A stretch of 64,000 bases of DNA from an uncultured Verrucomicrobiae bacterium (GTDB lineage: Bacteria; Verrucomicrobiota; Verrucomicrobiia; Limisphaerales; Palsa-1400): positions 288,001 to 352,000 of the forward strand of contig CAVPOM010000006.1 of the NCBI GenBank assembly GCA_963707025.1, written 5' to 3'. Each line of letters opens with the position of its first letter. The first letter of the stretch is position 1. Shown piece after piece: positions 9,585-26,853 of this stretch. Under the pieces are notes generated by a model that was not told the origin of the DNA, did no database searches, and worked only from the letters and a program-made list of their open reading frames with translations. Both the position numbers and the translations under genes were made by a program.

Positions 9585-9591
9585 AGCGATA

Positions 9592-9726
9592 CTCATATCG
9601 AGTGGTGGAGGGACTGGCCCGATGAAACCACGGCAACCGGCGGCAGATGCGTTTTGCCGCGCCAGGTGCCAATTCCAGCCCGCGCGCAGCCGGCGGTTCT
9701 TGCCGGTGTGGCCGGGAAAAGATGAG
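9592..9726 (+). ncRNA. SAM-I (S-box) riboswitch
   Basis: ATC-GAG-tggtGGAGGGACTGGCCCGATGAAACCacGGCAAC...GGTGCCAATTCC...AAAGATGAG; an alternative hairpin TGAGAAGAG/CTCTTCTCA (9723-9748) overlaps P1. Confidence 0.93.
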
Positions 9727-9849
9727 AAGAGCGCGCTCCCTCTTCTCACGCCGGGCCGGGGCCTGTTTGCCCCGGCCCGCGCCGCCCATCTCCCGATGGA
9801 CCGAGCCAGCCGGCGGCGGGTTGCAGCCCGCCGGCGCAGAGCAGGATTT

Positions 9850-17739: not shown

Positions 17740-18483
17740 ATGCCTGAGCCGGAGAAATTAATCCCTGTGCATGGGGGCTATCGGCGCTTGAAGAGCTTTC
17801 AGGTGGCGCAACTGGTCTATGATGTGACGGCGCGTTTCTGCGACCGCTATATCGAAAAACGCAGCCGCACGCACGATCAGATGGTCCAGGCCGCGCGGTC
17901 GGGCGTGCAAAATATCGCGGAGGGGAGCCAGGCGTCCGGCACGTCGAAGAAGACTGAACTCAAGTTGACTAACGTGGCGCGGGCCAGCCTGGAGGAGCTT
18001 CGGCTGGATTATGAGGATTTTTTGCGGCAAAGGAAGTTGACCCAGTGGGGGCGCAATGATCCACGAAGGGAGGAACTTATCGCGCGGCGGCCCGCGACCG
18101 CGGACGATGTGGCCCGGTGGGCGCGGGATGTGCGCGGGTGGGGCTGGGGTGGACAGAGTGGACAAAGTGGACAGACTGGACAGAAGAAAGGCGCGCCGGA
18201 GTCCACAAAGTCCACACAGTCCACGCAGTCCACACAATCCACAAAGTCCACAAAGTCCACACAGTCCACGCAGTCCGGGTTGTCCACACAGTCCACCTTG
18301 TCCACGCAGTCCACTTACGCCGAGATTGCGGCCAACGGGGCGCTGACGCTCATCGCCGTGGCGTGCGCCTTGCTGGACCGGCAGCTCAGCAGTTTGGGCA
18401 AAGCGTTTGTGGCTGAGGGCGGTTTCACCGAGCGCCTCTACCGGGTGCGCAGCGGGCGGAGGGTCTTCAAGCCCCAAAGTTAG
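17740..18483 (+). CDS. Four-helix-bundle protein with suffix domain (23S rRNA IVS protein/Avd-like fold), containing translated nonamer arrays
   Basis: HGGYRRLKSFQ, RTHDQMVQAARSGVQNIAEGS, ARASLEELRLDYEDFL, EGGFTERLYRVR. Confidence 0.9.
   Translation: MPEPEKLIPVHGGYRRLKSFQVAQLVYDVTARFCDRYIEKRSRTHDQMVQAARSGVQNIAEGSQASGTSKKTELKLTNVARASLEELRLDYEDFLRQRKLTQWGRNDPRREELIARRPATADDVARWARDVRGWGWGGQSGQSGQTGQKKGAPESTKSTQSTQSTQSTKSTKSTQSTQSGLSTQSTLSTQSTYAEIAANGALTLIAVACALLDRQLSSLGKAFVAEGGFTERLYRVRSGRRVFKPQS
18150..18317. repeat. Intragenic inverted 9-bp arrays: (TGGACAnnn)x4 at 18150-18185 and (GTCCACnnn)x13 at 18201-18317
   Basis: Read directly; translated as GQS/GQT and STK/STQ tripeptides. Confidence 0.95.
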
Positions 18484-23662: not shown

Positions 23663-23791
23663 GTACCCCCCTCGTCAATGAAAGGGGTCCTCCTCATCCA
23701 ACCAAATGCTGTATTCCGTCACTTACCATAATCCATCCCCAAAAGCAACGAAAAATGACCGTTAAAAAATCGCTTTGGTTGAACAAATCCA

Positions 23792-23819
23792 TTGACACTA
23801 TGCTCATTTAGTCTATTCT
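23792..23819 (+). promoter_or_regulatory. Sigma-70-type promoter for the downstream ORF
   Basis: TTGACA-N16-TATTCT; AAGGAGG RBS before ATG 23889. Confidence 0.55.
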
Positions 23820-23888
23820 GTGGACGGGCAGGCGATCCACTCGTCCGGCGGAAAACAACACGACAGGTTATGGTTTAAGGAGGATGAT

Positions 23889-24860
23889 ATGAGGAATGGC
23901 AAAATTGCAAAACTGCTCTCCACCGTCCGGGATGAGCTCAATGTGCGCATGGACAACGGCGAAAACGGCGGAAAACTTCTGCGCTGGCTCAACGGACTTC
24001 CTGAAGTCAAGGCGACGCTCCAGGCCAGCTTTGGCGGCCAGCCCGTCAGCAAGCAAAATCTCTGCGAATGGCGCCAGGGCGGCTTCCGCGAATGGCAGCT
24101 TCATTACCAATGGATTCATCAGGCTTATGAACTCAACCGGCTCACCACCGACATGGAGCAAGTGCTGGATGCGCCCATGCTGGCCGGCGACATGGCCAAA
24201 CTGCTGGCTGTCCGCTACGCCGCCCTCCTCAACACCTGGGATGGCGAGGCGGACCCGAAATTCGAGCGCGGCCTCCGCCTGCTGCGCGGCCTGGGCCAGG
24301 ACATCGCCTTGCTGCAAAGGACCTTGCATCGCTCCAGCCTCCAGGAAATTGCCTCCGACCAGCATTTTGAGGACGACTGCAACAAGAGAAGGGAGAAAAT
24401 AAGGGGGATGGCCATGGCCCCCATTTTGGCCAGGATGGAACAGAACAACCTGGAAAGGCTGTTTGGCAACTATGTGGACGAAGCGGCGGCCAGACGGCTC
24501 GCCGAATTTGTCACCGCCATCAAATTTAACCTGCCGCTGCCCAAAACGCCCCGACCGGAGCCGCCCGGTCAAACCTCCCGGTCAAACCCAAAGGCCCCGG
24601 CCGCCACTGTAGCCGCGGTCTGCGACCGTCGCACTCGTCGAACCTCCCGGTCAACGCCGGCGCCCGCGCCGGTTGTAGCGGCGGTCTGTGACCGTCGCAC
24701 TCCTCAAACCTCCCGGTCAAACCCGGTGTCATCGGCCCAGCCACTCAAACCCTCTCAGCCTCCGCCAACGCCGCCCGGTCAAACTGCTTTGCCCCCGGCT
24801 GTCCGGTCTGCTATGCCCGGCCAGGCCGCCGAAGAGCCGCCCGGTCAAACCGGGTCAAAC
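23889..24860 (+). CDS. Hypothetical protein (DUF3486/Mu gp27-like N-terminus) with repeat-derived tail; 5' exon of the intron host gene (3' exon 26820-26837)
   Basis: 'GKIAKL..VRDELN..MDNGE...WLNGLPEV...SKQNLCEWRQGGF'; spliced end would read GSN-HNCEA-stop. Confidence 0.7.
24564..24860 (+). repeat. Seven (C)CCGGTCAAAC-like motifs plus a 66-bp-spaced duplication carrying REP family A, all in frame
   Basis: Motif at 24564, 24577, 24646, 24712, 24774, 24840, 24851; REPs at 24608 and 24674. Confidence 0.88.
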
Positions 24861-26819
24861 GTTGCGCCAGTGAAGTTGGTTGGAACGCGGGTGAAAGTCC
24901 CGTCCGTCGAATTAGGCTGTTCACGACGGAACACGACCTCAACAGCGCCGCCGCGAGGCGGGGTTGGAAGCTGAGGGAGATGAACAGACGGGCCGTAATG
25001 AAAATGAACCACATCCAATGAGCCTCGATAAGTTTAGAACCGGAGACAAGCCGAGCCGCTGTTTGACCGGCGAAGGCCGCAGGGAGGAGGCAGGGCAACA
25101 GTCAGAGCCTTCTCAACGCTCCGGCGGGGTCGGCGTGGACGGCACGTCTGGAAGTTCAACCAAGGTAAGCTGGGAGAACTCCGGCGGCGGGCGGCCAGCC
25201 CAACCGCCCGCGCAAGCTGGCAAGACCAGTCAGGCGAGCGGCCCTGCCGGAGAAGTCGGAGTTCCTCATAGTAGCGTGGACTTGTTTGCGCTCCAGGCGG
25301 ATTTCCGCCGGGAGTTGCGCGAGCGAACGCAAAGGGGGAACACTTGCTCAATGCGTGGAGGCGAAGCGAAGGATGCGGGGATGGCCGGGGCGACCCGGAT
25401 AGCAACCCCGGAGAAAGTTCGGCAGCTTCAAATCGCGCTCTATCGGAAAGCCAAAGCAGAGCCGAAGTATCGGTTCTGGAGCCTGTATGGGGAATTGCTG
25501 CGCAAGGACGTGCTCGAAACCGCCTTGGCAGCGCAACAGCGCAACGGCGGGGCCGCGGGAGTGGACGGACAGAGTATGGAGTCCATCACCGCCGACCCGG
25601 CCCTGCGCCAGCAATGGCTCGACCGCCTGCAAGCAGAACTCAAAGCCAAGACGTATCGGGCCAGCCCGGTGCGGCGGGTGATGATTCCCAAGAGCAGCGG
25701 AGGGGAACGGCCGTTGGGCATCCCGACGGTCAAGGACCGGGTGGTGCAAACGGCGGTGTATCTGGTGCTGATGCCGATCTTGGAGGCGGACTTTCATCCG
25801 CGCTCCTACGGCTTTCGGCCCAAACGCCGGGCACACCAAGCCATTGCGGAAATCCAACAAGCAGTGCAGCAAGGCTACGTGGAAATCATCAACGCGGACC
25901 TGACGAAATATTTCGACACGATTCCGCACCGGGAACTGATGAAGGCCGTGGCCCGGCGGGTCAGCGACGGCAGCGTGCTGCGGCTCCTCAAGAGCTGGCT
26001 GCGCGCCCCGGTCGCGGAGGAAGACCAGGACGGCACCAAGCGAGTGATCCCCAACCGGCGCGGCACGCCGCAAGGCGGGGTCATCTCGCCGCTGCTGGCC
26101 AACCTCTACCTCAACCCGCTGGATCACGGGGTGAACGAGAAAACCTCCGGCCAAGCCCGCATGGTGCGCTACGCCGATGACTTTGTCATCGCGTGCGCGG
26201 CGGGGTGCGGCGGAGGGCTGATAGCGCGGCTCAAGAAATGGCTTCGAGCCAAAGGGCTGACCCTCAACGAAGTCAAAACCCGAATTGTGAACATTCGCAA
26301 GGAAGGGATCAACTTCCTGGGCTTCAACCTGACCTGGCGCAAGTCCTTTGGAGGGCGCGGCTACCTGCACGTTCAACCCAGCCAGAAAAGCCGGGGGGCC
26401 CTGCGCGAGAAACTGGGCGGCATCCTCAACCACTGGACGCAGGGGCGTCCGATACAGGAGGTGGTCAAAGAGGTCAACCAAGTCTTGCGCGGATGGGCGG
26501 GCTACTTCCACTACGGCAACAGCGTCTCGGTGATGAACCGGATGAAACACTACAGCCAAAACCGCTTTCGGCGCTGGCTGTGGCGCAAACACGGTTGCCG
26601 CCGCAGCCTGTGGGAACACTACGTTCCCGAGCAGTTGCACCAGCGTTATGGACTCTATGAACTGCCGACCACGGCGAAGTGGAAGGCGGCCCGATGAATG
26701 AGTTCGGAGAGCCGAATATGGGAAATCCGTCCGTTCGGTTCGATGAGGGGCGAAGTGGCAGCGCGAGACTGACAACTGCGGTCAGTTCAATCCGCCTCCT
26801 TCCACTTCGCCTACTCTAC
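24861..26819 (+). mobile_element. Group II intron, complete
   Basis: 5' GTTGCG; EBS1 loop GTTTGA at 25061 complementary to exon end TCAAAC; domain V GAGCCG..GAAA..CGGTTC near 26709-26741; domain VI GGCGAAGTGG...CCACTTCGCC ending TACTCTAC. Confidence 0.92.
25381..26697 (+). CDS. ltrA: Group II intron reverse transcriptase/maturase without endonuclease domain
   Basis: GAAGVDG, RPLGIPTVKDR, SYGFRP, GTPQGGVISPLLANLYL, RYADD, FLGF, GWAGYF. Confidence 0.95.
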   Translation: MAGATRIATPEKVRQLQIALYRKAKAEPKYRFWSLYGELLRKDVLETALAAQQRNGGAAGVDGQSMESITADPALRQQWLDRLQAELKAKTYRASPVRRVMIPKSSGGERPLGIPTVKDRVVQTAVYLVLMPILEADFHPRSYGFRPKRRAHQAIAEIQQAVQQGYVEIINADLTKYFDTIPHRELMKAVARRVSDGSVLRLLKSWLRAPVAEEDQDGTKRVIPNRRGTPQGGVISPLLANLYLNPLDHGVNEKTSGQARMVRYADDFVIACAAGCGGGLIARLKKWLRAKGLTLNEVKTRIVNIRKEGINFLGFNLTWRKSFGGRGYLHVQPSQKSRGALREKLGGILNHWTQGRPIQEVVKEVNQVLRGWAGYFHYGNSVSVMNRMKHYSQNRFRRWLWRKHGCRRSLWEHYVPEQLHQRYGLYELPTTAKWKAAR

Positions 26820-26853
26820 CATAATTGTGAAGCTTGACCACCTTGACCATGAG

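Follow-up and report, generated by a model that had tools for sequence, protein, structure and literature searches.

A multi-copy group II intron of an uncultured Verrucomicrobiae bacterium that appears to read two consecutive units of a 10-bp tandem repeat

The stretch of DNA analysed here (the window, 64,000 nucleotides; positions 288,001 to 352,000 of contig CAVPOM010000006.1, assembly GCA_963707025.1) belongs to an uncultured Verrucomicrobiae bacterium, a soil bacterium whose source assembly (G000) comprises 6.96 Mb in 18 contigs. Coordinates are those of the window, and the intron and its host unit lie on its forward strand. The window contains a group II intron of IIB type at 24861..26819 (1959 nt, with the ends GTTGCG ... 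CTCTAC), inserted into a hypothetical protein gene. The 5' exon (23889..24860) encodes a conserved N-terminal part of about 225 residues and a low-complexity tail spelled by repeats, and the host unit is headed by a sigma-70-type promoter-like site (TTGACA, 16 nt, TATTCT; 10/12 matches) at 23792..23819. The 3' exon (26820..26848) has C at position +1 and carries the stop codon of the joined frame (26835-26837) and two copies of TTGACC, which an earlier sequence-only reading of this DNA had correctly placed at 26834-26848. Joining the exons in silico leaves five codons before the stop; because the tails of homologous proteins vary freely, the insertion is probably near neutral, as that reading had suggested.

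Rfam models match domain I (RF02005, 24894-25139) and domains V-VI (RF00029, 26707-26819). Domain V (26709..26741) shows the AGC triad, a 5-nt terminal loop (GAAAU) and a CC bulge, while domain VI (26745..26819) has a bulged branch-point A at 26813 and the AC end; the AGC-triad domain V, the bulged-A domain VI, the AY end and both pairings between exon-binding sites (EBS) and intron-binding sites (IBS) are the features of a IIB intron. Domains V-VI fold significantly (z -3.95). In contrast, domain I folded by itself for minimum free energy gives no significant result (z -1.12) and a wrong EBS1 hairpin, and therefore the structure of domain I rests on Rfam and covariation. The EBS1 hairpin GCCG-CTGTTTGAC-CGGC (25055..25071), already pointed out in the sequence-only reading, has a 9-nt loop, of which bases 3-9 (EBS1 GTTTGAC, 25061-25067) are complementary to GTCAAAC, the last seven bases of the exon; U 25060 is the putative delta nucleotide. 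Thus, the loop can pair seven bases, not six (GTTTGA) or ten as had been proposed. The 10-base complement does exist as an exact match, but the CGG at its end is part of the EBS1 stem, and none of the 16 intron sites described below ends in CCGGTCAAAC. Between stems 5' of this hairpin lies AAGTTTAG (25030-25037), whose GTTT (25032..25035) can pair with AAAC of the preceding repeat unit, at target positions -14 to -11; this EBS2 core possibly extends to AGTTT and a bulged GA. The putative alpha sequence GGCTGTT (24915..24921) is complementary to alpha' AACAGTC (25097-25103) at the tip of a stem-loop, an assignment suggested by sequence and fold; the related metagenome locus L001 carries a compensatory change in this pair. 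The open reading frame (ORF) for the reverse transcriptase (RT)/maturase occupies 25351..26697, starting at ATG 25351 or 25381. This intron-encoded protein (IEP) has only the RVT_1 and GIIM domains and passes TIGR04416, in agreement with the earlier remark that the RT lacks an endonuclease domain, and its RT5 motif is YADD (26170-26181), not the FADD of subgroup g2.

The source genome contains 16 near-identical full copies of the intron, with 7 variable columns out of 1958, from which recent multiplication is evident and from which we infer that the intron is mobile. An intron pattern search across the class matched 1 of 401 genomes, the source genome only, so that the close lineage is sparse in this sample. 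When the flanks of all copies were tabulated, as the sequence-only reading had recommended, the 16 copies proved to share a 10-bp tandem register. In every one of the 16, TTGCG is preceded by G and CTCTAC followed by C; at this +1 position, the putative IBS3, close relatives have C or T, and the repeat consensus has C as well. The 5' end GTTGCG (24861..24866) is therefore one base longer than the usual GUGYG, which does not directly follow IBS1 here. The first G is assigned to the intron for four reasons. At four sites of the source genome and in relatives L081 and L087, the 10-bp register across the site is regained only with the G removed; after removal of the introns from the genome, G follows 0 of 44 period-10 doublets; head-to-tail intron junctions in L205 and L275 read AC|GTTGCG; and a contig of a relative from an RNA run departs from the window exactly before 24861, into a AATCAAGG tandem. 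The GTTGCG end given in the sequence-only reading is thus borne out.

One could suppose instead that the intron starts at UUGCG and that the G is an unpaired exon base or a scar of integration. For another bacterial intron, a boundary at 5'-UUGCG has been put forward (PMC7923331; here and below, statements on the literature refer to the available part of each cited text), and the 5' end of the present intron is deduced from DNA, not RNA. However, the doublets, the register and the head-to-tail junctions just described, as well as the invariance of the G in 16/16 copies, make this hardly credible for the intron in the window. It is more viable for the related introns with CC or TC in place of GT (see below), the evidence from empty sites covering the source-genome type only.

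The spread of the copies might also be ascribed to DNA duplication of a repeat element with the intron inside, or to an assembly artefact. The host genes of two copies are indeed 99% identical, and flanks are common to some pairs. Nevertheless, the identity of the copies ends at the intron ends while the flanks differ, so that the 16 flank pairs largely refute this idea; the insertions are in different units of different arrays, and a short-read contig joins the intron to the 3' flank of another copy. Of the explanations weighed here, this is the least probable.

As for the target, 14 of the 16 copies lie in 10-bp tandem GGTCAAAC arrays and 15 in 10-bp tandems overall; 15 of the 16 follow GTCAAAC, and the remaining one is in the sister tandem CCAAATCAAG. 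In a census of the source genome with the introns removed (1427 GTCAAAC sites, 535 of them with C at +1), GTCAAAC|C was occupied in 14/41 doublets with a 10-bp step and in 0/23 doublets with a 9-bp step (Fisher p 0.001, the sites not being independent). GTCAAAC|C sites other than period-10 doublets were occupied in 1 case out of 494, and GTCAAAC sites with another +1 base in 0 out of 892. Counted by array, occupancy was 14/32 with a 10-bp step versus 0/7 without (p 0.036), arrays within one genome again not being independent. The tail of the host ORF contains seven GGTCAA-containing copies (24567, 24580, 24649, 24715, 24777, 24843 and 24853), the number originally reported: five exact CCGGTCAAAC, the insertion unit CGGGTCAAAC with one mismatch, and one more degenerate copy. 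In the window, the exact 10-mer occurs as these five copies and as the reverse complement in the intron itself. In accordance with the 10-bp-step rule, the intron sits at the only doublet with 10-base spacing in the gene (24841..24860, with the IBS2 core AAAC at 24847-24850, IBS1 GTCAAAC at 24854-24860, and the exon ending ...GGGTCAAAC at 24860). The five earlier GGTCAA(A)C units (24565..24784), separated by steps of 13, 69, 66 and 62 bases, are unpaired and are not targets. The intron does, as had been stated, follow the last of the seven copies, but it is the spacing and not the position in the series that accounts for this. Similarly, the proposed specialisation on a dispersed short-repeat family holds, while the host gene as the target does not: only 2 of the 16 copies are inside the host gene family, and what is targeted is a family of repeats, dispersed and largely non-coding. 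The sequence-only reading had overlooked EBS2, the rule of 10-bp spacing and the heads of the target elements that resemble promoters.

The relation between the EBSs and their targets was then examined in relatives, using a pool of at least 120 metagenome loci (L codes) and 20 genome loci (G codes); all counts of relatives are among the matches listed. A 5' end was obtained for 139 of 140 loci, 86 had parseable EBSs and at least 30 flanking bases, and 81 of these were non-redundant. The longer 5' end (GT, GC, CC or TC before TGCG) was present in 66 of the 81 rows, with 24 different EBS1 loops and 17 EBS2 cores. Across these 66 rows, EBS1 formed on average 6.38 of 7 Watson-Crick pairs and EBS2 3.15 of 4, versus permutation maxima of 4.32 and 2.14, which are overstated as a contrast because the rows are kin. 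A register scan of EBS1, taking the better of two registers, gave 6.67/7 pairs versus 2.5-3.3 at neighbouring registers, and that of EBS2 peaked at shift 0 (3.15/4 Watson-Crick pairs versus at most 1.67 elsewhere). Therefore, EBS1 pairs with the seven bases -7 to -1 and EBS2 with -14 to -11, and both change with the target across relatives. Relatives at 85% IEP identity have altered both EBSs with their targets: G029 combines EBS1 GTGTGAC and EBS2 GTGC in GTCGCAC arrays; G007 has EBS1 GTTTGAT and EBS2 GTTT after AAACT..ATCAAAC; and G006 has EBS2 CTTT after AAAGT, the last two being in ATCAAAC-type arrays. Period-10 targets (at least 7/10 identity) were found in 36 of the 51 rows starting with GT or GC, against a genome background of 0.6%. 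By 5' end, they were 30/45 for GTTGCG, 6/6 for GCTGCG, 0/12 for CCTGCG, 0/3 for TCTGCG and 0/14 for canonical GTGCG. When all distinct metagenome flanks were considered, irrespective of whether the EBSs could be parsed, 36/61 GT and 9/9 GC flanks had period 10. In locus L225, the intron is placed one repeat unit behind another intron.

These data must be weighed against ordinary sequence-specific homing, in which a chance resemblance between EBS1 and EBS2 would make landing in tandems a necessity, and drift of the EBSs would simply follow the last site invaded. The IBS2 register is indeed common to relatives without period-10 tandems (the CC/TC group, L005, L012, L118); multi-copy DNA is a general refuge of group II introns (PMC7306698), and RmInt2 resides in the inverted repeats of ISRm17 (PMC4615759). 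Yet 36 of 51 rows of one clade are on 10-bp tandems, with many EBS pairs scattered over the domain I tree, and drift alone should uncouple EBS1 from EBS2. In addition, distant relatives with canonical GTGCG ends occupy other dispersed repeats: all 15 fetched 5' ends of G103 (16 matches) are in ATCCGTG tandems, and all 15 fetched ends of G076 (19 matches) in TTCGG heptamer doublets. We consider ordinary homing with no adaptation to the repeats unlikely. Most of the G103 5' ends (L138 and other loci) are broken after about 33 bases by another repeated element, and several are at contig ends. As to the introns that appear to start with CCTGCG or TCTGCG (L174, L183, L217, L160 and kin), the flanks of the L160 type look like small hairpins.

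Recognition of a structure, as in class C introns, was the analogy originally drawn for this intron: a GGTCAA...TTGACC hairpin would be needed, and a short EBS1 would only set the register. In the source genome, an inverted half-motif is found within 40 bases of 14/14 occupied period-10 sites, versus 24/30 empty ones. In contrast, it is found behind the intron in 0 of 10 relatives. The predicted DNA folds are weak and inconsistent, with no consistent hairpin upstream; the inverted half is downstream, and the insertion site would fall in the loop, not downstream of the stem. Moreover, EBS1 pairs seven bases and EBS2 covaries with the target. Class C introns do resemble the present one in being endonuclease-less (En-minus), in their high copy number and in their intergenic multi-copy niche (terminators, attC), but they lack EBS2, pair through a short IBS1 and are inserted on the downstream side of a hairpin (PMC3753933, PMC4424553), none of which holds here. 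We therefore regard a hairpin-directed mechanism as very improbable, if somewhat less so in the source genome considered by itself, and the analogy with class C as weak.

Concerning classification, a quick IQ-TREE analysis of 48 IEPs (8 of 56 loci were dropped for want of an intact ORF) placed the protein in a 21-row Verrucomicrobiota clade with a Shimodaira-Hasegawa-like approximate likelihood ratio test (SH-aLRT) support of 100. This clade groups with Ni.ha.I1 (g3) and B.th.I3 (g2) with an SH-aLRT of 98, apart from g1 and from one class D reference, in a midpoint-rooted tree with long reference branches. The RT phylogeny called for in the sequence-only reading thus finds relatives for the intron, while its class is probable only: because the references, from Tables S2 and S1 of PMC3552965, include none of class C, E, g4 or core F, the intron probably, but not provably, belongs to class F in the broad sense (class F sensu lato: g2-g4 plus F). 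In a tree of domain I with the EBSs removed (62 rows), all extended 5' ends are gathered on a single long branch of 51 rows (node support not printed), from which the canonical ones are excluded, and similar EBS variants turn up on separate branches with weak support. The source genome also encodes, at G000:C15:110667-111614, a second, unrelated group II intron ORF that is 43% identical. The open literature returned no paper on this lineage, its six-letter 5' end or the repeats; most subscription papers, which could affect how new the 5' end is, were outside the search.

Taken together, we think it probable that this is an active endonuclease-less IIB intron of broad class F which uses RNA-DNA pairing to home into a family of multi-copy repeats, and it appears to read two consecutive repeat units, one through EBS1 and the other through EBS2. 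The distance between IBS1 and IBS2, fixed in the ribozyme, would equal the 10-bp period, which would allow near-identical EBS1 and EBS2 to read adjacent units. Transcription of the intron would start from the promoter-like head of each element, in the window likely from the site at 23792..23819; an upstream promoter is proposed because such introns are reported to carry no promoter of their own (PMC12584367). The intron would then splice as a lariat at the site defined by EBS1 and reverse-splice into another empty array, the inserted copy being made with a replication-fork primer; reverse splicing and fork priming are known for other En-minus introns (PMC4424553). Arrays may offer dozens of mostly non-coding, probably transcribed landing sites, among whose variants the lineage would have retuned its EBSs many times. 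The spacing between IBS1 and IBS2 is a property of the wider clade, so that period-10 tandems would have been a ready niche once EBS1 and EBS2 had converged.

Several observations weigh against this explanation, in addition to the kinship of the rows and the non-independence of the arrays mentioned above. Two of the 16 copies break the target rule, namely the C11 copy, at a lone site without IBS2, and C4-333215, with a poor EBS1 match; among relatives, 15 of the 45 GTTGCG rows are outside period-10 tandems. The CC/TC-start sister group has the same 5' extension and EBS2 register, yet 0/15 period-10 tandems, so that the origin of the register does not lie in the repeats. The spliced joint across the intron was absent from four contig sets, although contigs cannot show absence of splicing, and neither spliced RNA, lariat nor an empty allele of this exact locus was seen. 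In the G run at 26389-26398 (intron column 1532), 9 of the 16 copies are one G short, which, if real, would be a frameshift in the IEP at about residue 342; run X1, however, has a short-read contig that agrees gap-free with the intact form, and an error in long-read homopolymers is possible. As to the promoters, the relaxed pattern discussed below was written after examples had been seen, and the strict one was present within 450 bases of only 4/25 tandem-target metagenome loci (0/29 others). Apart from these objections, GC skew over 60 kb on either side of the 16 sites showed no clear strand bias (10 positive, 6 negative), the assembly being in 18 contigs.

Among the matches listed, the target elements themselves are mostly intergenic and are built alike: a head resembling a promoter is followed by a variable body and the tandem, then by a spacer rich in T or A, TTGACC and, in many cases, CCATCACT repeats. 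Within 700 bp upstream, 10/16 intron copies have the strict promoter pattern (background 0.9%), and the relaxed one occurs in 35/39 arrays (background 1.5%) and within 1200 bp upstream of 15/16 copies. The approximately 39 arrays of the source genome look like undescribed, promoter-headed modular elements ending in GGTCAAAC tandems, and several start with a GGAG-type palindrome. That the 10-bp period reflects phased protein-binding sites is speculation. Another small repeat family, TCAAAGGGGTCAAACCATATATTTGC, has a 9-bp step and no intron insertion (e.g. C6+59657, C12-102051, C16+109381).

The host protein has no Pfam, NCBIfam or PHROG match. Its Atlas cluster carries PF11985 on 17% of the members, and a likeness to Mu gp27/DUF3486 is a lead only. 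Homologues keep the roughly 225 residues and have tails of varied length, with at least two repeat-spelling motifs in 56/111. A profile of the family found four full-length genes and one weak fragment in the source genome, and therefore the arrays are not gene tails in general; the non-coding elements share the layout of the host gene unit and may be homologous to it. The promoter-gene-repeat unit 23722-24860 is duplicated with 99% identity at G000:C4:374438-375641; both units carry the intron, and their 3' flanks differ. The 3' flank in the window resembles that of the C10 copy (63 bases, 94%), which may reflect module shuffling or recombination between intron copies. In the tail of the host ORF, two GTAG-headed imperfect palindromes (24609-24703), which we take to be similar to repetitive extragenic palindromes, have matches elsewhere in the genome. 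Elsewhere in the window are, at 17740-18483, a gene of the 23S rRNA IVP family (four helix bundle), which contains a tract of 9-bp repeats (STQSTQ), and an S-adenosylmethionine riboswitch (RF00162) at 9590-9728.

Compared with known systems, the intron is like class F sensu lato (PMC3552965; Ge.ur.I1 and Pe.th.I2 of PMC3753933) in its RT-X protein without endonuclease, its length of about 1.96 kb and the presence of EBS1 and EBS2, and it shares the Rfam domain I family with B.th.I3. The 5-nt domain V loop and the alpha' at a stem-loop tip are as in classes IIE and IIF (PMC3753933) and do not separate E from F. Nevertheless, its IEP is only 45% identical to that of Ni.ha.I1 and 37% to that of B.th.I3 and falls in a Verrucomicrobiota clade of its own, and the six-letter 5' end and the tandem-repeat targets set it apart, as does YADD from the FADD of g2. 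While EBS2-IBS2 is dispensable for in vitro splicing of IIF introns, a role in homing having been guessed (PMC3753933), EBS2 here covaries with the DNA target. The class D introns RmInt1 and RmInt2 of Sinorhizobium meliloti are also En-minus IIB introns with many copies made by homing into a multi-copy element, and recognition in the present intron looks sequence-based, as for RmInt2. However, their target is an insertion sequence that codes for a transposase, in contrast to a short, mostly non-coding tandem motif read twice; the C-terminus of the present IEP does not contain the class D motif LX3AX3PXLF[V/A]HW (PMC4615759), and the class D reference is far away in the tree. Closest in respect of the splice site are introns with a shifted 5' end (C.te.I1 of Clostridium tetani and fungal mitochondrial rRNA introns), in which EBS1 pairing likewise sets the splice site upstream of the usual position of the pentamer. 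Those introns are reported to have lost EBS2, the branch A and retromobility, and it has been suggested that mobile introns may need IBS1 adjoining GUGYG, a spacer being linked to loss of branching and mobility (PMC4024640, PMC4424553). The present clade, in contrast, has retained all three features, EBS2, the bulged A and an intact RT, and its spread is recent; its shift is of one base, and the canonical G1 position is a pyrimidine.

With these results, short tandem repeats join the niches known for group II introns of bacteria, and the 24 EBS1 and 17 EBS2 variants in 66 rows constitute a natural library of matched EBS1/EBS2-target pairs. The difference in occupancy between 10-bp and 9-bp doublets is genomic evidence for a role of EBS2 in homing, as guessed in PMC3753933, and a clade with an extra base, a branch A and recent spread does not fit the suggestion made in PMC4024640. 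Predictors that locate intron ends by GUGYG would place them wrongly here. The finding also points to an unstudied family of promoter-headed repeats. As a wider proposal, put forward tentatively and with much less assurance than the homing explanation itself, this may be an undescribed Verrucomicrobiota lineage that tracks host tandem repeats as its niche, reading two units at once, often retuning both EBSs, borrowing the promoters of the elements, and remaining both mobile and able to branch although its 5' end has six letters (GU, GC, CC or UC before UGCG). The target elements, for their part, could derive by reduction from an unrecognised cassette that in complete form encodes a gp27-like protein.

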